In this document: positions 3,290-56,447 of the stretch, one piece after another
Position numbering within the stretch: the stretch's first letter is position 1
Layout: every line of letters starts with the position of its first letter
Assembly: GCA_964016885.1 (NCBI GenBank)
Contig: OZ024760.1
Span: 6,076,001-6,140,000 of the forward strand
Direction: 5' to 3'
Length of the DNA: 64,000 nucleotides
DNA from: Eledone cirrhosa
Taxonomy: Eukaryota
Position numbers and translations under genes: made by a program
Notes under the pieces: generated by a model
The model's input: the letters and a program-made list of their open reading frames with translations, nothing else
Told to the model about the DNA's origin: nothing
Databases searched by the model: none

Positions 3290-3501
3290 GATCGACTTTC
3301 GTCAAATCGGACCGAGGGAACAATGTTTCCGTTGGTCTTTCCAATTGCTAATACTATCTATCGGTCGCCACTCCAGGTAGAAGGAGCAACGTGAAATAAA
3401 GTGTCTTGCTCAAGGACATAACGCATCGCCTGGTCCAGGAATCGAACTCACAACCTTACGATTGCGAACCCAATTCTCTAACCGCTCAGCCACACGCCTT
3501 C
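3290..3501 (-). mobile_element. tRNA-derived CORE-like SINE
   Basis: The reverse complement has an A box (tggctgagcgg), a B box (gagttcgattcc) and the core gtccttgagcaagacactttatttcac. Related copies lie at ~4095-4225 and ~4330-4537. Confidence 0.75.
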
Positions 3502-3573
3502 ACTAATATATAAACTTTATATACACATGATATATAAACTTTATATACAAACGATGTATACACTTTATATATA

Positions 3574-3960
3574 GGAGGTACATGGCTTAGTGGTTAGAGC
3601 ATTGGCCTTGCTATCGAAAGGTTGTGAGTTCAATTCTCAGACTGGGTGAAGTGTTGTTTCCTTGAGCAAGACACTTTATTTCACATTGCTCCAGTTTACT
3701 CAGCTTTAGAAATGAGATGATAGGGACTGGGGTCCCTATCATTCCACTGCAAAGTGGTCGTGGAGGTGCCACGGCAAAAAAGGACCCAGCCCACACTGTA
3801 AAGTGGATGTGTAGGCGCCACGGAAAAAAAAAGCACCCTGCCCACACTGTAAAGGAGGTTGGTGTTAGCAAGGGCATCCAGCTGTAGAAATCAAGCCAGA
3901 ATCAGTTCCCGTCCCACCCTTGCAAGCAGGGAAAAGCGGACGTAAAATGATGATGATGAT
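3574..3960 (+). mobile_element. Full-length tRNA-derived SINE with CORE-like domain, two 48-bp modules and an RTE-type (ATG)n tail
   Basis: A box tggcttagtgg, B box gagttcaattct and core ccttgagcaagacactttatttcac are present. The 3' end cccacccttgcaagcagggaaaagcggacgtaaaa(tga)n is identical to the LINE end at ~51956-52005. Confidence 0.85.
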
Positions 3961-4564
3961 ATACACCTTATATACACACGATATATACACTTTATATACA
4001 CACGATATATGATGATGTCCAATGGAAAGGCAAAAGCCAATACAACTTTACATCGGTGTCATCACAATTGTGTTTTTCTTTTGCTTTTTCCAGCAGAGTG
4101 GTCTTGAGCAATTTGAAATAAAGTTTCTTGTTCAAGGAAACAATGGGCTACCCTATGCAGTAAACAAACTCACAACCTTACAATCCTGACACCAACACAC
4201 TAACCACTAAACGATACACCTTCACTGTCTTTGTTTAGGTAGATGTAAATAATGTACAATATTTTCTAGTATTTTTTTTCCATTTTTTTTTAAAAAAAGA
4301 TCCCCAGATCTCATTCACTTACTGAATGAGGGTGAAGTTTGTTGAATTGGAGCAAGGAACCAGTCTTTCCATTGGTCTTTCCATTGCTGATACTATCTAT
4401 CAGTTGCAACTCCTAGCAGAAAGAGTAACGTGAAATAAAGTGTCTTGCTCAAGGACACATCACCCCAGTCCAGGAATCGAACTCACAATCTCATGATTGT
4501 GAATCCAATTCCCTAACCACTAAGCCATGCACCTTCACTATCTTTATCTTAGATAGATGTAAAT

Positions 4565-8009: not shown

Positions 8010-8040
<31 letters not shown>

Positions 8041-8044
<4 letters not shown>

Positions 8045-8457
8045 GCAGAGGTTATATTTAATTTGTTGGGATTCAACAAGCTTAAACATTTTTTTATAAC
8101 TGATATAAAGCACTCAACAGATAAGTGGAGTAAATATACAATATATTAACAAATGGAAACTATATTTATAAAACCATATTTATTTTATTATACATATTTC
8201 AAGGACCACCAAGGCAAATTATGGTGCGCTTTCATCAGATATTCTGTATTATATTTTATATGATGAAAGTGCACCATAATCTGCCTTGGTGGCCCTTGAA
8301 ATATGTATAATAGAATAAATATGGTTTTATAAATATAGTTTCCATTTGTTAATATATTGTATATTTACTCCACTAAACTGTTGAGTGCTTTATATCAGTT
8401 ATAACATTTTTTTAAAGCTTTTTGAATCCCAACAAATTAAATATAACCTCTGCATAT
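8041..8457. mobile_element. Foldback (palindromic) hammerhead-bearing element, family A, copy 1
   Basis: Inverted arms of ~200 bp run from atatgcagaggttatatttaatttgttgggattc to gaatcccaacaaattaaatataacctctgcatat, with (TA)n on both sides. Homologous to 41383-41761 and 53202-53599. Confidence 0.85.
8181..8241 (-). ncRNA. Type I hammerhead ribozyme motif (family A, stem I shortened)
   Basis: Minus strand reads tat-CTGATGA-aagcgcacca...tggtggtcctt-GAAA-tatgta-TA-ataaaata. The mirror copy on plus (8252-8317) has ATGATGA, so its core C3 is mutated. Confidence 0.55.
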
Positions 8458-9069
8458 ATATATATATATATATATATTGTCTGCAATGTGTGTGTGTGTA
8501 TATATGTATATATATCACCATCATCATTTTACGTCCATTTTCCACGCTAGCATATATATATATATGAAAGCAACTGGTGCGTGTGTTTCTTATTGGCAAC
8601 ATGACCCTCCCAAAGTATAACAATATATTAAGACTATTTTCCTACTATATCAAGTGGTAAACTAATATATTTCTTCATTGTATTGAGTCGTTTGCTTTGT
8701 TATATCTTTTGCACATAGGTATGTGTGTATGTATGTATGTATGTATGTATGTATGTATGTATGTATGTATGTATGTATGTATGTATGTATTTATGTATGT
8801 ATGTATGTATGTATGTATCTATAGTGTATTCCCAGTGAATGTTTTGGTTGCCGACTCTGTGCAAGACATTTTAGATCATTGGCTGGGCTAAAAAGCCACA
8901 TTCGATCACAGCGCTGTTAGTTGCTATCGTGTGTGTGTGTGTATAGATATGTTTATGTGTGTGCGTATATATATATGTATATGTATATTATTTTTGTTGT
9001 TGTTGTCATTATTATTATTGTTGTTGTTATTATTATTATTGTTATTAATATATGTGTATGTATATATAT

Positions 9070-34892: not shown

Positions 34893-36480
34893 CATATCAT
34901 TTCATAACGAGTCTCTCTCTAGGTTGTAGAGAAACTTTAATTATATTACTTTAAAATATAAAACATAACTTATCATTTTAAGTGGTTGTAGTTGTGTAAT
35001 ATTCCATGGAACCCCCCTCCCCCCACCTATCCTAAAAAAGATTATTTTTCTCATCTTCAATTGAAGTGCCTGCTATGCAGTTGATAGATTTGTTCTTTTT
35101 TACATGTTTTATATCTGTTTTGTATATCTATTTTTTCTAAATTCCTTTTTTCCCCTATCAATAATGATATAATTATTATTGTTATTGTTTGTAAAAACTC
35201 TTCTACATAATAGTTTTATCTCGGTTATCATAATGGACTACACTTTAAAATGAAAAATAAAAATGAGAAAAAATATACGTTATATATTTTTTCTCTTATT
35301 TTTCCTGAACTTTGTGAGATTTAGCAAATTACTAGAAATAAGCGTGTTTCAGACAAATAAATAAATATGTTTTTCAACATACAGAGTGGGCCGTTTAAGT
35401 ATAAGCCATTACAAAAATATATATCTTTCTGTATATCTTTGATGAAACCGTACACTATTTTTGCATGATAAAGGTATATATACTTTTAAATATTTTTTTT
35501 TTGTATAATTCTATTTCTACTGTTTGTTATGATCCATTTATTCCATTCAACCCAACAACCCAACAAATGTGTTTGTCTTTTTCAGTCATAGAATAAATCC
35601 ATAGTGGATATTTTGAAAAATAAATATATATCTTATACATAATAATTGGAAAACTGCGAGACTGTGTCCTCTTTATATTTTTTTATCATGTCATTAAAAT
35701 AAGTTTGATTACTTTGAATAAATCATGAATGAATATTATATCCCGCCGAGGTTGACTTTGCCTTTCATCCTTACGGGGTCGATAAAATAAAGTACCAGTA
35801 ATGCACTGGGTAATTGCTGGCCTTGTGCCAAAAGTAGAAACAATTATATTATAGGATTGGCAGTATGGGTAGAGGGTCGGACGCCATGCTTTGACGTATA
35901 GAGTTATGGCCCTGCTATTCTGAGTTCAAATCCCGCCGAGGTTAACTTTGCCTTTCATCCTTCCGGGGTCGATAGAATAAAGTACCAGTAATGCACTGGG
36001 TAATTGCTGGCCTTGTGCCAAAAGTAGAAACAATTATATCATAACGTTTATGTTTCCTTTGCTAATCTCATTTTCTCCTTTTCCATTTTCATAACATTTC
36101 ACTGTAATGCAGTTTATATATAATATCGTCTTTTTTAAATGGATTACTTTACTGATTGATTACAGAAGAGAGTGTAACACAGTCTCTCTTCAATTTCTGT
36201 ACATATTCTCAATTTACTTTACATTTGACGTATCATATACACATGCTAGTAGAAAACCACTCGAACGGTGGTTTTTCTGCTAGTATATGTAAAAATAAGG
36301 AAATAATATTGTTATATTTGGGGAGGGCCATCTTGTCCTAGTATTGCCAAAAGTAATAAAACACACTCACTGTTTGCTTTGGTTTTCGCTTCAGTATATT
36401 TTATATTTTCATAAATAATTCAGCTGGCAATCAATGTTTATCATTGATTGACCAACAGTTAAAAATATAAACATAATTTC

Positions 36481-36522
36481 TCAAAGTTCTTTCGTCACAC
36501 ATATCTGTGACATCTTCAGTGA
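36481..36522 (-). ncRNA. Type I hammerhead ribozyme motif (family C, diverged copy)
   Basis: Minus strand reads tca-CTGAAGA-t-gtcaca-gatatg-tgtgac-GAAA-gaac-TT-tga. It keeps the same stem II arms as 9484-9528 with a different loop. Confidence 0.65.
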
Positions 36523-36977
36523 TTATCACTCTTTTCTCCCATTGTGTTTCTATGATGTTATAAATAAGAAAATAATTGTTTCTACTTTAGGCACAAGGCC
36601 AGCAAATTACCCAGTGCATTACTGGTACTTTATTTTATCGACCCCGTAAGGATGAAAGGCAAAGTCAACCTCGGCGGGATTTGAACTCAGATCGTAAAGG
36701 GACGTAACTATGCTGGAAAGCATGGCGTCCGACCATAAGAAAATAATGCTAATGAGAAATAAACTTCTTCTTCACCCATTTATTCCTTTCCTGGGAGGGT
36801 CCAAGAGGGCAGAGCCCTCAAACACTCCTTCCAGTGGGTCCTGTTTGAGGTAACTGTCACCAGCTGATCTGGCTGGATTCCCAAGTGAGACCAGCCAAGC
36901 TCATGGATGTTATCCTGGGTGGTTTGTGGAGGTAGGGTGGGGTGGGAGGACAGAGTCCTCAAACACTCCTTCTAGTT

Positions 36978-39318: not shown

Positions 39319-40680
39319 TTAGGTAAGGCGGGTCTTCTCTATTACTGAGTACCGCCAAAGATCTCGGTCCAGTGACATTGTCTTGGAGAGGTGTAAGTGT
39401 GTGAGGTCGGAATTTATCAAGTTGTCCCAGGTTTTTCTGGGTCTGCCTACTTCGTGGCTACCGTCTATTTTTATTGCCCTGCACTTTTTTATACAGCTGT
39501 CGTCTTTCATGCGCATCACGTGACCATACCAACGTAGCCTTCTCTCGAGTAAACAACATCTGATCCCTCTTATTTTTAATTTTTCCCTTAGTTCGTTAAT
39601 GCTTTGCCGTTTACGTATATTACTATTACACATCCAGCGGAGCATGCAAGCTTCGTTCCTCTCTAGTCTGCGTATATCCTCTGCACACAATGCCCAGGTC
39701 TCACTGCCATGCAACATTGCTGTTCGTATGCAGGCATCATACAGCCTGCCTTTCATTTTTAGGGAGAACCCTTTAGCGGCTAATAGTGGTATAAGCTCTC
39801 TGAACTTTTTCCATCCAGTTCTGACTCTAGCTACTGTACTTTCAGAGCACCCTCCCCCACTGCTGATTTTGTCACCCAGGTAACGGAAGCTATCCACTAT
39901 TTCTATAGAACCCTCTGTGCAATTGAAAGAACTAGTATTTTGTGGGCACTTGCTGCTACTTATTGCACCAAAGCACCGGCCACATGTAAAATCTATGTTC
40001 TTAGTTAGCTTACCTGTGATCCCACTACATCTTTTATGCACCCATACTTTGCATTTGGGACATAAAATGGAGTTTCTACCTATGCCTTTCCTACACACTG
40101 AGCATGGCCATTTCCCGGATGGGACCGGCGCCCTATTTTCTTTCCTACAAACTAGAACTTTAGTCTTAGCCAGGTTAATTTTAAGGCCTTTTGATTCTAG
40201 GCCGTGCTTCCATGTTTGGAATTTCTTCTCTAGTTCGGCCATTGATTCAGCTATGAGCGTTAGATCATCTGCGTATAGGAGTTCCCATGGGCAGCCGGTC
40301 TTGAACTCCACTGTTATAGCCTGAAGGGCAATAATAAATAGTAGGGGGCTGAGAACGGAGCCCTGATGAACACCAACTTTTACGCTAAACTCTTCACTAT
40401 ATTTGTTGTTAATTCTAACCTTGCTGACTGTTTCTTTATACATTGCTTGTATAGCTCTCACAAGCCATTCATCAACACCTAGTTTTCTAAGAGCCCACCA
40501 GATAATGGAACGGGGGACTCTGTCGAAGGCTTTCTCCAAGTCAACAAAAGCTAAGTATAGGGGTTTACTTTTAGCTAGGTACTTCTCCTGTAGTTGTCGT
40601 ACAATGAAAAGAGCGTCTGTGGTACTTTTGCCTGACACAAACCCGAACTGCATTTCATCTAGATCAATTCTCTCTCTGAT
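39319..40680 (-). pseudogene. RTE-type reverse transcriptase, C-terminal ~450 aa open, with inserted PHD-type finger
   Basis: Motifs [42 protein letters not shown] and GRPRKTW. The C4HC3 motif lies at 39973-40104. The upstream part is broken by an insertion and a frameshift. Confidence 0.92.
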
Positions 40681-40932: not shown

Positions 40933-41312
40933 ATTAGTTGCGCTATTACTTTTTCCGTGACCTTCATGACCTGGTAATTTAATGCCTCTACAGTTACTCC
41001 TATCTAGGGCATCTCCTTTACCCTTGTAACAGTTAATGATGATGCTGCTACGCCAGTCCTTCGGAACAACCCCACTCTGTATGACTTGGTTTACTATCCG
41101 GGTGACCATGGTGTGTCCCACCGTTCCAGAGGCTTTCAGCATCTCAGCAACTATTTCCGAAGGCCCAGCCGCCTCACCCGTCTTCATATCTTTGATTGCC
41201 TTACTCATTATACTACTTTCGACTAACACTGCTGGTCCCTCTATTGGGTCGATGTGGGGGAGACTGTCTTTCTCCCATTTATTCTCCTCATTTATATATA
41301 TATATAATATAT

Positions 41313-41388
<76 letters not shown>

Positions 41389-41422
41389 TAACAAATGGAA
41401 ACTATATTTATAAAACCATATT

Positions 41423-41487
41423 TATTTCATTATACATATTTCAAGGACACCAAGTCAAATTATGGTGCGCTTTCATCAGATAAAATA
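41423..41487 (-). ncRNA. Type I hammerhead ribozyme motif (family A)
   Basis: Minus strand reads tattttat-CTGATGA-aagcgcacca-taatttgact-tggtgtcctt-GAAA-tatgta-TA-atgaaata. Confidence 0.7.
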
Positions 41488-41656
41488 TAATATAGATCAG
41501 TTTTATAAATAAATATTGACATACCCTTAAAGAATGCAATCATTTCTGTCAGAAGCTCCCAGATAGTCTATCGAGGAGCTTCTGGGATCTTCCAACAGAA
41601 ATGGTCGCATTCTTTAAGGGTATGTCAATATTTATTTATAAAACTGATCTATATTA

Positions 41657-41721
41657 TATTTTATCTGATGAAAGCGCACCATAATTTGACTTGGTGTCCT
41701 TGAAATATGTATAATGAAATA
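41657..41721 (+). ncRNA. Type I hammerhead ribozyme motif (family A)
   Basis: CTGATGA at 41665-41671 and GAAA at 41702-41705. Stem I is 8 bp (tattttat/atgaaata), stem II ~9 bp, and stem III is the self-complementary ATATGTAT. Predicted cleavage is after A41713. Confidence 0.7.
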
Positions 41722-42050
41722 AATATGGTTTTATAAATATAGTTTCCATTTGTTAATATATCGTATATATATATATATATATATCATAAAACATGTCTAT
41801 AGAATCACAAGATAAAATATATACTATTTCCTCTCCCAATTAGCATAATTAACCATATAAAAAATCGAATAGACCAGGCTATAAGAATGAGGCTTCTATG
41901 AAGAAATCTCCGACAAATAACCGAAACCAGCCCTTCGCGTCGGCCGTAGCGGAATATTTATCGAATATTTCGACAGCGTAATCGCCCAGATACAGTCAAC
42001 TAAACAGAATTAGGTGTAAAATAAACTAGGAGAAAATAGAATACATTTAA

Positions 42051-42142
42051 AAACCTCTACCATGGTTTCGTCCGTATTTTGAGTTTTCCAATAATTATGT
42101 AATAATTATATAAACTCAAGCGCCGGATTCATCAGGAAGCTC
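42051..42142 (-). ncRNA. Type I hammerhead ribozyme motif with long stem II (family D)
   Basis: Minus strand reads gagcttc-CTGATGA-atccg...ttgagttt...aaactcaa...cggac-GAAA-ccatgg-TA-gaggttt. Stem III is the palindrome ACCATGGT and stem I is 7 bp with G-U pairs. Confidence 0.7.
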
Positions 42143-42674
42143 GCTCTTATCTAGACACTAAATTTTCCAAAGTGATCGCGCCAAGAAATTCATTTCAAAA
42201 TGGCTAAAAATCGTGACGTAGTCGCGGTCAGGTTGGAAGGGGTGTGGTAGTTGCTTACGACTGGTGGCATTTTTGCCATATATATACCACTCATATGTTT
42301 TAGCTTGCTGAAGGTACCATATATTTAGATTGAACTAAGTACTATGTGATTGCAGAGTGAACCTCTTAACCACACAGCCATCCTGGCCCATCTTCTATGA
42401 TTTATAAATTTAAACAACTTTACTGTTAGATCAGTGATAGATAATAATAGTTATGGTGGTATAATAACATAATGTCCGCTTCGAAAAGCCGATAATGTCT
42501 TTACAAGACTTCACATATCTTCCAGAAAGATCTGAAATTCATTCACATTTATAGATCTTTCTTTTTCTCTTTCACCCTCTCCTTCTCCTCCTCTTTCTCT
42601 TTCTTTTAATAACTCTGTCAGTTGGCCATTAATTTTCAGCTGATAGAGAGATTTAGACCAGATTTTTGGGGGCG

Positions 42675-43820: not shown

Positions 43821-44584
43821 CTAGAGGTTCTCAAAGTGGGCGCTATCACCCCCCCCCCCCCCAGGAGGGCATTGAGAAAGTCCAGGGAATGCTGACCCTA
43901 TCTGGCCAGAATTCTCTTACCTTTTTTTGTTCAAACCAGCCATAACTGGCCACTCATACTTATGATAAGGTATTGTTCTTAAAATAAATAATATCAGAAT
44001 CTCATAGATACGATACTATGTGAGGTAAAGCCTTTACTGTGAAAATACAATAATATATGTAGAGTAATGTAAATACTAAAGGGTTAAACTTTTATTGTCT
44101 TTAAATGTATTATTTTTTGTCTTAATTTTTCGATCAACCTTGAAATATTTAATAACTTTTCATTTCTTTATATTTCAGGTATGTACTAAACAATATTTTG
44201 TAATTTGGGTAAGGTAAGTTATTTTTGAATTTTTATTTTACTTTATTAGTTTTTTTTTTCTAAAGCGTTAAGGGGGGTAGTAGAGATGACATAATAAAAT
44301 ATTAAATATCAAATGATACTTATTACATATAAACATATGGCGGTGGATTGGCAGTATCGGTAGAGGGCTGGATGCCATGCTTTGCAGCACAGGGTTACGG
44401 TTCTTTACAGTCTGAGTTGAAATCCCACTAAGGTTAACTTTGCTTTTCATCCATACGGGGTTGATAAAATAAAGTACCAGTAATGCACTGGGGTCAGGTC
44501 TCTCTGGAAATAGGGTTGGGGGACACTGAGGGCATTACGAGGCCATGAGGAGGGACTGTGGCCCAAAAAGTTTGAGAACCTCTC
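43821..44584. mobile_element. Possible hAT-type MITE with nested partial piggyBac MITE (~43900-44087) and SINE (44338-44493)
   Basis: Ends agaggttctcaaa ... tttgagaacctct are inverted repeats. No 8-bp TSD is recognisable. Confidence 0.4.
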
Positions 44585-45547
44585 GTATAGCCCATACATG
44601 CATGGAAAAATGTAATAAAAATGCTGATGAAAGAGAAAGGGAGGTGTCACATGGTCGCTTGATCTCATAGAAATAGCACTCAAATCTCCCTCAATTTGTA
44701 CCCTACTGGTTTCCAAAAAAAAAAAAAAAATGCATAATGATTTCTACTTTAGGCACAAGGCTAGCAATTTGGGGTGAGGGGGGGAAATTTGATTAAATCA
44801 ACCCCAGTGTATTACTGGTACTTTATTTTATCGAGCCCTGTAAGGCAAAGCTAACCTCGGCGGGATTTGAACTCAGTGTGTAAAGGGACGCAACTCTATG
44901 CTGCAAAGCATGTTGCCCGATGCTCTACCTATACTGCCAATCCACCGCCGTTAAATAATAAAACACATGCACACACTCACACACACGCGTGCTCACTCAA
45001 TCACGCACACACTCACTCTCACTCACTCACACACACGCACGCATTCACTCACACACATTCACAAACTCTCTCTCTCTTTCTCTCACACACACACACATAC
45101 ACACTCTCACACAATCCTCTCCCCAACATATACCCCCCCCCCCCACACACGCATTCACAAACACAAACACACACTCTCACCCACAACATACACAAAAGCC
45201 AGGTCCTGTATTTCAAGATAAACTGTGCCAGCCTGAAAAGAAAAATAATACCCCACTAAAAAACACAAACAAAAATAAAATTATTTTAGCCTCTTTAAAA
45301 AATCTACAGGGTTTGTTTAGTATTGGAATTATGTAATACTTATCATTGGGGCTTCTCTGGTTACCCCACCCCCTCGTTATTCCTCCTTTCCCCAGGGTGG
45401 GTGGTCAGGATGGGATGGGGTGGGGGGACTTAAGGTATTTGACCTATTTATCTTCTATGTGGTTTTTGTTGTTGTTTGTTTTCTGTTTTGTTTATTTATT
45501 TTTTATCTCTCTGCAACAATTTGTAGCTTAAACATCTCTCATATGGA

Positions 45548-46471: not shown

Positions 46472-47085
46472 ATGGTGGCTGCCAACTCGTTTTCGAGTAC
46501 GGCCACTACTTTATATCCATGTAGGAGAACCCCTACCGATGCGCTGAACAAGTGTGACTTTTTAGTCCAGCCAGCGACTTGAAACCTCTGGTACAAACAC
46601 TACACTTGTGACAATTATTGACACATAGTGCTGGGCCCATGGTACCATGTGACGACAAGTGCAGAGAGATCTCCAGATATAAAGCAATTTCCTGTGCCGT
46701 GAAGCTTTTATAGTGAGCAAAGGCACTGCACAAGGCCAGTCCCACTCTCTTAACCAAGATGATATTTACCAAAAAGAAGAACAAGTCAACATCATTGGAT
46801 ACCATCAGGGTTGCAGGTGTTATATCAGAGTTTTCCTTCTCCTAGAATTCTGCCTTGACAAAGGCTAAGGGGTCATCTCTCCCGGTGATTTTGGATGGTC
46901 ATCGACTCTAAAGAGCTCCTTTGCCCTTTGACAGGTTTTGTTTTTAGTCCTGCAGGATGTCCAAAGTCACCCTCCTCACCAAGAAACGTTGGTGGGGTTG
47001 CCAGTTTAGTTGCCAACGACCCGACCATGGGACAGGTTGTACTGGGATACTTGTTACCAGTAGCACCAACTGGTGACCTGATACC
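46472..47085 (-). mobile_element. Internally deleted (bipartite) RTE/BovB-like element
   Basis: Minus strand has an RTE 5'-UTR-like motif (ctaggagaaggaaaactctga), then a terminal C2H2 finger CSVCTRGFKSLAGLKSHTCSAHR*, a short UTR with hairpin actcg-aaaa-cgagt, and (TA)n. Confidence 0.5.
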
Positions 47086-50515: not shown

Positions 50516-50519
<4 letters not shown>

Positions 50520-51988
50520 GGGATGCTTTGGAGAGGAGCAATTATAGGGGTATAAAACTGATAGATCAGGTTATGAAAGTGGCAGAAAGGATTTTAGCAC
50601 AACTAATTAGAGAAAGGGTCAAACTAGATGAGATGCAGTTTGGTTTTGTGCCTGGGAAGAGTACAACAGATGCCCTCTTCTTGGTGAGACAAATGCAAGA
50701 GAGGTTCTTAGAGAAGAATAAGCCACTATACTTGGCCTTTGTTGACCTAGAGAAGGCCTTTGATAGGGTACCCCGATCTGTCATCTGGTGGTCCCTAAGG
50801 AAGCTGGGTGTTGAGGAATGGCTTGTAAGGACAGTGCAAACTTTGTACAGAGGTACTCTCAGTAAAGTCAGGGTAGGAATGGAGTTTAGTGAGGAATTCC
50901 AGATACAAGTAGGAGTACATCAGGGTTCGGTCCTCAGCCCGCTCTTGTTCATTATAGTCCTCCAAGCCATAACAGAGGAGTTTAAGACTGGCTGTCCATG
51001 GGAACTTCTCTATGCTGACGATCTGGCTCTTATGGCAGAATCAGTAGAGGAGCTAGAGAATAAATTCCGGCTATGGAAACAGCAGTTGGAAGCAAGAGGA
51101 CTGAGAGTAAATCTAGCTAAGACAAAAGTGTTGATGAGTAGAAAAGAGGACAAAACCCTGATTCCGTCAGGGAAATGGCCATGTTCGATATGCAGAAAAG
51201 GAACTGGCATAAATTCTATAAAATGCACACAATGTAGGTCCTGGGTACACAAGAGATGTAGCGGGATAGCAGGCAAACTAACAGGTAGGGAGAAATATGT
51301 ATGCAGTAGATGTACAGGGAAATTAGACAGTAGAAGTCGCACTGATAGACACATTTTTCAAATGCGAGAGGGCGCTATAGAAGTGGTGGATAGCTTCCGG
51401 TACCTAGGAGATCAGATTAGCATGGGAGGAGGGTGTTCCGAGGCCATAGTATCTAGAATAAGGACGGGTTGGAAGAAGTTTAGGGAGCTGCTTCCTCTGT
51501 TGACGAAGAAGGGTTTCTCCCTGCGTACGAAAGGCCGGTTGTATGATGCCTGTGTGAGGAGCGCGATGCTGCATGGTAGTGAGACATGGGCAGCTACCGC
51601 AGAAGATATGCGACGGCTGGAGAGAAATGAGGCAAGCATGCTCCGTTGGATGTGCAGTGTAAATGTGCGTGAACGACCCAGCATAAATGTGTTGAGAGAG
51701 AAACTGTGTCTGAGAGGGATAGAATGTAGTGTACGGGAGAGGAGACTGAGGTGGTATGGACATGTGATGCGCATGGAGGATGACCGATGGGTGAAGAAGT
51801 GCCAGGAAATGCCAGTTGAAGGAAGACGTAGTAGAGGTAGACCACGAAAAACATGGGCGGAGGTGGTGAGAACAGACCTCAGATCATTGAAGCTCACGGT
51901 GGAGATGACGAGGGACCGTGACGAGTGGAGAGATGCTGTGCTGAATAAGACCCTTCCCACCCTTGCAAGCAGGGAAAAGCGGACGTAA
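50516..51988 (+). pseudogene. 5'-truncated RTE-clade LINE reverse transcriptase (family A), ~490 aa without stops, with inserted PHD-type finger
   Basis: Motifs [57 protein letters not shown] and RGRPRKTW. It starts abruptly after (TA)n, and the stop is followed directly by (ATG)n to ~52005. No endonuclease domain is present. Confidence 0.95.
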
Positions 51989-52223
51989 AATGATGATGAT
52001 GATGATATATATATACACTCCCATGTACGTCAATACTCATCTTTTTCCATTTCTCCGAGGGTTCTTAACCCCACTATCAGGCTAAATAATTTCTTTAATT
52101 TCTTTAGTCAAAATACGGCGATAGCTAACATTTCTAATAATTTCAAATCCACTCGCTGTTTCGAAAATATTCTTACATATATATATATATCTGTCTAACC
52201 CATGCTAGCATGGAAAATGGACG

Positions 52224-52544: not shown

Positions 52545-52887
52545 CATCATCATCATCATCATTTCATTTTACATCCGCTTTTTCCCTGCTTGCAAGGGTG
52601 GGACGGGAACTGATTCTGGCTTGATTTCTACAGCTGGATGCCCTTCCTAACACCAACCTCATTTACAGTGAGTGCTGGGTGCTTTTTTGCCGTGGCACCT
52701 CCACGACCACTTTGCAGTGGAATGATAGAAACCCCAGTCCCTATCATCTCATTTCTACAGCTGAGTAAACTGGAGCAATGTCAAATAAAGTGTCTTGCTC
52801 AAGGAAACAACACATCACCCGGTCTGAGAATTGAACTCACAACCTTTCGATTGCAAGGCCAATGCTCTAACCACTAAGCCATGTGCC
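52545..52887 (-). mobile_element. Full-length tRNA-derived SINE (3574 family, one 48-bp module)
   Basis: Reverse complement of 53610-53940. Confidence 0.9.
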
Positions 52888-52898
52888 TATATATATAT

Positions 52899-53200
52899 AA
52901 TCGAAAGGTTGTGAGTTCAATTCTCAGACCGGGTGATGTGTTGTTTCCTTGAGCAAGACACTTTATTTCACATTGCTCCAGTTTACTCAGCTGTAGAAAT
53001 GAGATGATAGGGACTGGGGTCCCTATCTTTCCACTGCAAAGTGGTCGTGGAGGTGCCACAGCAAAAAAGCACCCAGCACTCACTGTAAATGAGGTTGGTG
53101 TTAGGAAGGGCATCCAGCTGTAGAAATCAAGCCAGAATCAGTTCCCGTCCCACCCTTGCAAGCAGGGAAAAGCGGACGTAAATGAAATGATGATGAATGA
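52899..53200 (+). mobile_element. SINE (3574 family), A box missing, head-to-head with the previous copy
   Basis: Near-exact reverse complement of 52557-52852. Confidence 0.9.
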
Positions 53201-53201
53201 T

Positions 53202-53599
53202 GAAACTATATTTATAAAACCATATTTATTTTATTATACATATTTCAAGGGCAACCAAGGCAAATTATGATGCGCTTTCATCAGATAAAATACAGATTTG
53301 TTTTATAAATAAATATTGACAAACCCGGAAAAAAAGACAACCTTAACTATCCAGGAAGCTCCAACTGTTAAGGTTGTCTTTTTTTCCAGGGATGTCAATA
53401 TTTATTTATAAAACAAATCTGTATTTTATCTGATGAAAGTGCACCATAATTTGCCTTGGTTGCCCTTGAAATATGTATAAAAAAAAATATGGTTTTATAA
53501 ATATAGTTTCCATTAATATATTGTATATTTACTCCACTAAATTGTTGAGTGCTTTATATCAGTTATAAAATGTTTTAAATTAAATATAACCTCTGCATA
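53202..53599. mobile_element. Foldback hammerhead-bearing element, family A, copy 3 (left arm shortened at the SINE tail)
   Basis: Inverted arms with hammerhead cores at 53227-53292 (-) and 53422-53487 (+; CTGATGA 53430-53436, GAAA 53468-53471). Confidence 0.85.
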
Positions 53600-53609
53600 T
53601 ATATATATA

Positions 53610-53940
53610 GGCACATGGCTTAGTGGTTAGCGCATTGGCTTTACAATCGAAAGGTTGTGAGTTCAATTCTCAAACCGGGTGATGTGTTGTTTCCTTGAGC
53701 AAGACACTTTATTTCACATTGCTCCAGTTTACTCAGCTGTAGAAATGAGATGATAGGGACTGGGGTCCATATTCCACTACAAAGTGGTCGTGGAGGGGCC
53801 ACGGCAAAAAAGCACCCAGCACTCACTGTAAATGAGGTTGGTGTTAGGAAGGGCATCCAGCTGTAGAAATCAAGCCAGAATCAGTTCCCGTCCCACCCTT
53901 GCAGGCAGGAAAAAGCGGATGTAAAATGATGATGATGATA
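53610..53940 (+). mobile_element. Full-length tRNA-derived SINE (3574 family)
   Basis: A and B boxes, core, RTE-type tail and (ATG)n. Confidence 0.9.
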
Positions 53941-54423: not shown

Positions 54424-55278
54424 TATATATATATATATACATACATGTCAATGGCGGTGCCCCAGCATGGTCTCAGCTTATCAGCTGGAACATGTAATAG
54501 AGTAAATAGAGTAATGTTAAGAGAAGCATTAGCAACAACAAATACAACAGCAACAACAACAACAAAGATAAAAGAATATAAAATAATTGATTGCTTAATC
54601 ATCATTTATCAAGTATTTGTTGAGAGACTTGAAATATTTCTAGATTTCTATAATATATATAATGTGTGTGTATATATATATATATAATGTGTGTATATAT
54701 ATAATGTGTGTATATATATATAATGTGTTTGTATATATATATATTTATATTTATATACATATAGGGTCAAGTATGAAATTTGTAGTGAGGCATATGGTTA
54801 TATGTTTTTTCTACAAATTTCATACTTGACGACCCATATATATATATATTCACACACACACACACACACATACGCACACGCAAGCACACGCTCACACACA
54901 CATATATATATGATGAACAAAATAACATATATTGTGTGTCTGTGTCTGTGTGTGGGTATTGTGCATGTGTATGTGTGTACATTTGTGTTTGTGTGTGTGT
55001 GTGTGTGTGGGTATTGTGCATGTGTATGTGTGTACATTTGTGTTTGCGTAAATATATATATATATATGTATATGTGTTGTGTGTGTTGTGTATCTGTATG
55101 TGTGTATTTGCGGGTGTCTCTGTGTTTGTGTGTATGTATGTATGTGTATGTGTGTGTGTATATATATATATATATATGTATGTATATGTGTTGTGTGTGT
55201 TGTGTATCTGTATGTGTGTATTTGTGGGTGTCTCTGTGTTTGTGTGTATGTATGTGTGTGTGTGTATATATGGATATA

Positions 55279-55687: not shown

Positions 55688-56447
55688 TGAGGAGGCTTCA
55701 AAAAGTTTGTGGAAAAAGTACTTATCTAAGAATCATATGGAGGGATTTTGATGTCAATGCACCTGTACGTTCTCCTACTAACATGTCATAAATGTTGTAA
55801 CACGAACCCTTAAATGTATGTTACAACATGGCGCTGCCAGTCAGAAGTCAGCACCCGCTCGAGCAACATGGCCTCTCTCAAAACATTAAATCCATGGTGA
55901 AGCTAGGGCAGAAGAAGGGCAGCCAAATCATTGGAACTCTGGAGCAAGTTTATGGGGATAATGTCCCAAAGAAATCAACAACCTACAAATGGATAAGTTG
56001 TTTTAGAAGTGGAAGAGATGAGGTTGAAGATGATCCCCAGTTGAAGATGTAAAGAAAAGCTGCTTTGACATGGTTTAAATCACATGGCCTTCAGTTTTAC
56101 ACAGATGAACTTAACCCTTTAGTATTTAAACAGGCCATATCCGGCCCAAATTCTCTCACCTTCTTTCTGTTCAAACTGGCTGTAACCGGCCACTCATACA
56201 TATGTTAAGGTATTGTTCTCAAAATAAGTAATATCAAAATCTCATAGATTCAATATATGTGAGATAATTGTGGAGTAAGGCCTTTACCACGAAAATATAA
56301 TAGTAAATATAGAGTGATGTAAATGCTAAAGGGTTAAAGGCTAGTATCAATGCTACTAGAAGTATATTGACCTGGATGGAGCATATGTTGAAAAATAAAC
56401 ATGTTTTTTCCGACTGTCCTTTTTCCATGAACTTTGAAGCCCCCTTG
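55688..56447 (+). mobile_element. Internally deleted mariner (Hsmar2/irritans-like) DNA transposon
   Basis: TA-tgaggaggcttcaaaaagtttgtggaaaa ... ttttccatgaactttgaagcccccttg-TA. N-terminal HTH remnant NIKSMVKLGQKKGSQIIGTLEQVYGDNVPKKSTTYKWISCFRSGRDEVEDDP and C-terminal remnant KAALTWFKSH...IDLDGAYVEK*. Confidence 0.85.
56111..56337 (+). mobile_element. piggyBac-type MITE nested in the mariner
   Basis: TTAA-ccctttagtattta ... taaatgctaaaggg-TTAA. Confidence 0.88.

Follow-up and report, generated by a model that had tools for sequence, protein, structure and literature searches.

Palindromic hammerhead repeats in Eledone cirrhosa DNA are most likely head-to-head insertions of a Penelope-like element end

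Penelope-like elements (PLEs) offer the closest described counterparts to the repeats considered here. PLE insertions are reported to be biased toward (TA)n (PMC8557442) and often carry an inverted, 5'-truncated copy at their 5' end (PMC8557442, PMC3846280, PMC8969392), and head-to-head pLTRs of about 200 bp have been described (PMC3846280), while the tail of a PLE is usually one-sided (PMC8557442). PLEs of the Hydra clade occur in Octopus, and one of those listed with them, Penelope-13_HM, has a hammerhead on each strand (PMC8557442). For minimal PLE hammerheads, monomers were inactive and dimers of low activity, and truncated PLEs have been given as the source of the opposite-strand hammerhead pairs that lie 100-700 bp apart in Schistosoma (PMC4209133). 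Purified PAc cleaves its target on both strands and extends each of them, prefers AT-rich DNA, and starts reverse transcription at two internal sites matching the tail; its ribozyme required protein, was dispensable for insertion in vitro, and left no RNA ends at its cut site (PMC11167929).

The window analyzed here, a 64,000-nucleotide stretch of Eledone cirrhosa DNA, had been noted in a preliminary description to contain three palindromes adjoining (TA)n. All three were borne out, with their ends refined to 8044-8454 (copy 1), 41383-41768 (copy 2), and 53202-53597 (copy 3). BLAST comparison of each copy with the 64-kb window gave self-inverted matches of 91%, 95%, and 91%, respectively, and found no fourth copy in the window. 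In every copy the two arms point outward and their 5' ends meet at the center. Copy 1 consists of a left arm on the minus strand (8044..8242) and a right arm on the plus strand (8243..8454), flanked by (TA)13 at 8018-8043 and (TA)11 at 8455-8476. The arms of copy 2 (41383..41566, minus; 41568..41768, plus, with a small duplication near its 5' end) start at an identical family position and meet in a center (41562..41572) where a 5-bp perfect inverted repeat flanks the single base 41567; about 90 bp of interrupted (TA)n precede it (41293-41382), and (TA)10 lies at its right end (41764-41783). Copy 3 is made up of a left arm (53202..53346, minus) and a right arm (53347..53597, plus) followed by (TA)6. 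Adjacency to (TA)n, as in EN+ PLE insertions into AT-rich or (TA)n DNA, therefore holds for five of the six outer ends but fails at the left end of copy 3, which is asymmetric because it abuts the tail of a SINE-like repeat that has removed the 3' part of that arm. Target-site duplications are unreadable inside (TA)n.

Arms of the same copy differ at 14/191, 7/185, and 6/141 aligned positions in copies 1, 2, and 3 (4-7%), yet they carry the same diagnostic states (alignment column 32 is G/G, gap/gap, and T/T), and those of copy 2 are identical across 82 alignment columns. The shared diagnostic bases indicate that both arms of a copy derive from one source sequence. Polarized A-to-G editing was considered as a cause of the arm differences in the three copies and rejected, as the differences are of mixed type. 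An assembly artifact from hairpin reads would draw on the fact that no contig or read among those listed bridges the exact center of copy 2; against it, the arms are not mirror images, the centers contain unique sequence, and independent short-read data show strand-switch joints as well. We regard the palindromes as real, and the chance that they are an artifact as negligible.

The preliminary description had also proposed that the arms are type I hammerheads with five intact cores. GAAA, an identical 8-nt self-complementary stem III, and an AUA triplet are present in all six arms, and CTGATGA is found in five, the exception being the right arm of copy 1 (core at 8260), where the claimed mutation of C3 is confirmed as an A. 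The motif is complete in only half of the arms, namely both arms of copy 2, for which a complete stem I had been claimed, and the left arm of copy 3. In copy 1, the left arm (core at 8238) is cut about 4 nt before its core and keeps only a small part of the 5' strand of stem I at the junction; the right arm of copy 3 (core at 53430) has a 2-nt deletion within stem I. In the right arm of copy 2, the motif spans 41665..41713 on the plus strand, with the core at 41665-41671, stem II at 41672-41701, GAAA at 41702-41705, stem III at 41705-41712, and a predicted cut after 41713; on the minus strand, cuts are predicted after 41431 (copy 2 left arm, core at 41479) and after 53235 (copy 3 left arm, core at 53284). 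Stem II contains a C-C mismatch at pair 4, changed from C to T in two of the six arms, and is closed by an A-U pair. A strict scan for the core and stems I-III in type I order returned these three sites in the window compared with one in 30 dinucleotide shuffles, and that single site lacked a palindromic stem III. The Rfam models did not recover the motif: no hammerhead match was obtained at the gathering score, nor at E values up to 10 on 41300-41850, and the miRNA-family matches that appeared at E up to 10 are the hairpin itself and far under their gathering scores.

To place these copies within the family, public sequencing runs carrying the same species label, together with runs from other organisms, were aligned to them; X1 denotes contigs and X22 raw reads. 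On 41383-42150, a stretch that also includes a second repeat, 7,093 X1 contigs align, and the single right arm of copy 3 is matched by 3,560 X1 contigs and 26,111 X22 reads. The family is thus very abundant, with thousands of distinct contigs on one arm. At the core, contig depths add up to some 60,000 times the depth of single junction contigs, a ratio that is no measure of copy number, and RAD-seq depth, dominated by loci close to a restriction site, was left out of abundance. A second organism (run X5) also harbors the family; two presumed RNA runs (X15 and X16) gave only short, low-identity AT-rich matches and were counted neither for nor against. The family pattern had no match in viral, metagenome, or prokaryote contigs. 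Depth climbs from the leader toward the 3' part of the arm in both X1 and X22.

Variation in these reads follows the predicted structure. Among 40 of 64 variant rows, those falling in 53390-53523, minus four private to copy 3, were mapped onto the fold of copy 2. Among these rows, variants occupy 11/34 unpaired, 6/82 paired, 1/6 stem III, and 0/11 core positions, with one variant lacking a partner column; unpaired positions thus stand against 7/99 paired, core, or stem III positions (p 6e-4). The stem III variant makes the palindrome perfect. An abundant subfamily has a different stem II, in which A-U becomes G-C at pair 2 and C-G becomes U-A at pair 6 with the same C-C mismatch retained, a configuration read from variant rows 41444 and 41448 plus the loose-end consensus at 41447 and not from linked single reads; we infer that it is also changed at the free core position N7. 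Core conservation and stem covariation across copies, on which the hammerhead assignment had been staked, are both seen in the listed variant rows. With the core spared by variants and the changes in stem II compensatory, selection for the ribozyme fold has likely acted on the source elements.

Read in the sense of the ribozyme, a full arm is about 280 nt long and opens with an 83-87-nt leader, followed by the hammerhead and then by a 3' part. The first ~45 nt of the leader are strongly divergent between copies 2 and 3, and the remainder is conserved. Three arms begin at the same base (41566, 41568, and 53347), as does, within one position, a read joint at 53346; one X1 contig carries six extra letters before this point, and the common 5' start may accordingly lie slightly further upstream. 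Toward the outside, two fixed 3' ends 90 nt apart are used in the window: a short end about 55 nt past the cut (copy 2), at which loose ends in the reads continue into (TA)n, and a long end 90 nt further (copies 1 and 3; positions 8044 and 8454 in copy 1). A bulged hairpin, beginning 2 nt behind the short-end position, is found in all three long arms (8367..8386, plus; 8131, minus; 53531-53550, plus) and lies 58 nt past the cut in the right arm of copy 1, with the qualification that its search pattern was drawn after viewing both this family and the sequences compared with it and occurs 1.8 times per shuffled window. The block conserved between subfamilies (41620..41761, plus) is predicted to form a single extended helix I closing at the short 3' end, with a fold energy no more stable than that of shuffles (z -1.3).

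Several features of the arm were examined for coding or splicing signals. A splice-donor-like GG-GTATGT, at 41618-41626 and 53388-53396, opens the conserved block in three subfamilies and pairs with the short-end region in the predicted fold; it could be an intron donor or just the closing strand of the extended helix. PLE ends can contain introns, and a GT..AG skip is absent among the joints listed. Of two candidate open reading frames, the one from the ATG inside the core is closed by a stop codon after 16 codons at most; the other, starting at a later ATG and uninterrupted as far as the long end of the copy 1 left arm, depends on a minority base in the reads (53572 G to A). Both were rejected as coding candidates. 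Leader translations gave no Pfam match.

It was originally proposed that the mobile unit is the foldback itself, with a rod-like transcript whose ribozyme could be active only in RNAs starting near the center. Folding reproduces this on/off behavior in silico: for a read-through RNA spanning all of copy 2 the prediction is a rod (-274 kcal/mol) with hammerhead-helix pair probabilities of 0, and in an RNA starting at the center stems I and II are predicted to form with probabilities of about 0.5 and 0.97. Stem III, on the other hand, is unpaired in the predicted monomer, and its dimer duplex amounts to only -2.2 kcal/mol; we predict a weak ribozyme that depends on dimer formation or on a protein. 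The centers tell against the palindrome as a unit as well. No two of the three are alike in the window, and 31 distinct joints were found on copy 2. Among the 15 listed, the depth of the 14 with X1 support ranges from 10.6 to 44.7, most lying near 11; neither arm starts before the cut in 5, one arm is without all or part of the ribozyme in 3, and both begin upstream of the core in 7. In the 5 starting at or after the cut on both sides, the core would be missing, with the qualification that the intervening sequence is flagged as not known in 8 of the 15 (including 4 of these 5), that positions depend on alignment breaks, and that many joints have sides under 30 letters, which makes single rows weak. 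In raw reads, eight opposite-strand joints at varied positions appear among the 12 listed for the right arm of copy 3, their orientation not being given. Differing centers, many joints, a depth gradient, and shared arm bases are the pattern expected of an inverted pair that is created afresh with every insertion. The unit that moves is probably not the palindrome itself, and we give the original proposal only a very slight chance; nor does the analysis support one ribozyme per strand as a designed trait. Opposite-strand hammerhead pairs have already been ascribed to truncated PLEs, which makes the conditional activity probably a by-product of insertion geometry. Other parts of the preliminary description held up, namely that a single copy cannot release a circle and that the repeats belong to a mobile family of the Penelope/retrozyme kind that carries hammerheads and is non-coding.

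A palindromic shape, flanking TA, equal outer ends in copies 1 and 2, and variable centers are also what a MITE or foldback DNA transposon would present, with long terminal inverted repeats, variable internal deletions, and a hammerhead by chance. One family with two different outer ends departs from the single fixed terminus of such an element, and neither the 5'-to-3' depth gradient, nor the tracking of RNA structure by variation, with compensatory changes in stem II, nor a tail hairpin like that of Hydra PLEs fits it; we consider this origin very unlikely. A MITE finder would probably label so abundant a palindromic repeat a DNA transposon, when a retroelement footprint is more likely.

Our preferred reading is that each palindrome is the scar of an insertion: a PLE that targets (TA)n would have had its short 3' end, with the hammerhead, reverse-transcribed twice and the two copies joined head to head. 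We hold this specific account to be likely, and PLE scars in general to be slightly more so. The copies have arms pointing outward, outer ends at one of two fixed points beside (TA)n, variable inner ends, and diagnostic bases common within a copy. In the mechanism we envisage, a PLE protein with reverse transcriptase (RT) and GIY-YIG nuclease, probably Hydra-clade-like and encoded elsewhere, would bind an RNA comprising the 83-87-nt leader, the hammerhead, and the hairpin-bearing tail and would cut both strands of (TA)n. Both DNA ends would then prime cDNA on the same RNA sequence, from the short or the long start, and the cDNAs would halt at the RNA 5' end or before it, after which the ends would be joined. 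The ribozyme would be selected in the source elements and a passenger in the three copies. Pfam detected no GIY-YIG domain in 48 window segments, which comprised two long RT ORFs and 46 out of 251 high-complexity segments, a single one in shortened form, and among the same 48 no RT + GIY-YIG ORF was linked to an arm 3' end, so that PLE membership rests on architecture.

Priming from both target ends in particular is, in our estimate, slightly short of an even chance. The arms of copy 2 extend to an identical 5' base and are separated by a 1-nt spacer, as expected of two run-off cDNAs. The same PLE origin could instead have yielded the second arm by fold-back, with the first cDNA (or an antisense template) snapping back and copying itself, as self-priming has been proposed from similar junction palindromes (PMC3846280). 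In each of the two testable copies the outer ends of the arms are of one kind, long/long in copy 1 and short/short in copy 2, which speaks against the usual PLE tail and favors fold-back, two copies being too few to decide between the routes. The diagnostic bases common to both arms and the small inverted repeats at the centers of copies 1 and 2 point in the same direction. Full-length arms with a 1-nt spacer in copy 2 are nevertheless hard for a snap-back to produce, and PAc extends both target strands in vitro (PMC11167929). Fold-back is a close rival, with the balance against it.

A different template is conceivable, namely a circular retrozyme monomer of ~300 nt, of which the arms would be copies of less than one round. 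The full arm is close in length to animal retrozymes (PMC7229834), and retrozymes are stated to derive from pLTRs (preprint 10.64898/2026.07.22.740005). Against a circle, BLAST found no tandem (head-to-tail) unit in the window; the go-back joints among those listed measure only 19 and 34 nt, a deletion in the right arm of copy 3 being able to mask a longer one; and short- and long-ended arms stop at the same 5' point, suggesting a linear end. We judge a circular template improbable. Somewhat less doubtful, while still unlikely, is that the family exists as an independent linear RNA of ~280 nt whose 5' start is fixed and which, as a solo PLE end comparable to a SINE, relies on an enzyme of the Hydra type; its ribozyme would cut in vivo, and its 3' cleavage product would be reverse-transcribed. 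The common 5' start of three arms is one ground for this idea, and the joint ends are another. Among listed joint ends, 12/30 fall within -2 to +19 of the predicted cut, compared with 4.1 expected if uniform, and 1/30 inside the ribozyme, compared with 8.7 expected, the ends being non-independent, picked by support, and dependent on alignment breaks. RT stalling in helix I would give an identical cluster. If the idea of a cleaved template were true, arm starts clustered just past the cut would document, in the genome, that hammerheads cleave during the PLE cycle.

Other repeats lie near the three copies. A second, unrelated hammerhead-bearing repeat on the minus strand (41787-42200) shares the (TA)10 behind copy 2; it has a core at 42135, a long stem II, a palindromic stem III, and a predicted cut after 42058, is multi-copy with a depth in reads that drops toward its 5' end, and its stem III resembles that of Hydra-1_Obim (PMC8557442). 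Around copy 3, the intervals 52563-53186 and 53610-53935 hold two SINE-like copies standing head to head around (TA)6, with 92% identity over 633 nt, and a third one beyond the right end of copy 3. In their 3' part these SINE-like copies match the end of the RT ORF region (51951-51989), and it is one of them that cuts short the left arm of copy 3. Two long LINE-like RT ORFs, 39319-40680 (minus) and 50516-51988 (plus), each have a PHD finger behind the RT domain, and we take them to be RTE-type and not PLE-like. The stretches 55801-56049 (plus) and 46536-46841 (minus) show a fragment with a match to the Mos1 transposase HTH (E 1.6e-05) and a weak C2H2 zinc-finger match under the cutoff (E 0.009). 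Further inverted pairs of a dispersed repeat, together with a 65-bp palindrome, occur at 35875-36734, 44339-44949, 3383-4221, and 54766-54830, with no hammerhead core found within them.

Taken together, the repeats form a real, abundant, and structurally conserved hammerhead family, most likely to be read as head-to-head insertions of a PLE end. Among the papers found on hammerhead ribozymes and octopus, titles and the opening lines of abstracts mention no such family, and the main text of the O. vulgaris repeat paper contains neither 'hammerhead' nor 'ribozyme'; the family may already be catalogued in Repbase or Dfam. The insertions, thousands in number, short, and fully readable, combine two 3' ends and subfamily markers with a predicted cut site; they provide a test set for both-end priming versus fold-back and for cleaved RNA as a template.

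Of the described systems, animal non-LTR retrozymes (PMC7229834; preprint 10.64898/2026.07.22.740005) are likewise non-coding, low in GC, ~300 nt in size, equipped with a type I hammerhead, and related to PLEs. They are defined, however, by head-to-tail repeats with a ribozyme in each unit, whereas the window has none and the listed joints include no go-back joint of monomer length; by the tandem criterion, the family is not a retrozyme. With the minimal PLE hammerheads of metazoans (PMC4209133) it shares a long helix II, a palindromic helix III, predicted action as a dimer, dispersal mostly as truncated PLE ends, and opposite-strand pairs 100-700 bp apart, but it is without the unpaired base between 9 and 10.1 and the typical G10.1-C11.1 pair, and its helix I is longer, at 8 bp, and predicted to extend further. 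Hydra-clade PLEs (Hydra-2_Amil, Hydra-2_Ajap, Penelope-13_HM, and Hydra-1_Obim; PMC8557442) resemble it in their preference for (TA)n and in a hammerhead close to the 3' end. In 2 of 6 consensus sequences of File S7 of that paper, and more loosely in a third, a bulged hairpin lies 40-60 nt past the cut, and by eye the hairpin of the family resembles those in the tails of Hydra-2_Amil and Hydra-2_Ajap, a likeness that is suggestive only, such a hairpin not belonging to the published criteria of the clade. The family hammerhead matches none of those tabulated for the clade in PMC8557442, differing in a longer stem II with a C-C mismatch and an A-U closing pair and in a stem III that is an 8-nt self-complementary run, and by eye or motif searches the available Hydra-1_Obim sequence has no match to the family. 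The clade itself is delimited by RT phylogeny and by protein motifs (RWK, DKT, CxCX5C, no CCHH). The EN+ PLE insertions with an inverted, 5'-truncated copy (PMC8557442, PMC3846280) differ in that no ORF lies between or beside the arms here, in that the 3' ends are 90 nt apart compared with 30-40 bp, and in that the two testable copies are not one-sided. They agree with the present family in the ~200-bp head-to-head copies of a 3' end, the variable 5' truncation, the two 3' ends, the (TA)n targets, and the type I hammerhead near the 3' end, and a PLE footprint already described consists of 5'-truncated ends set head to head in (TA)n, each strand carrying a hammerhead.
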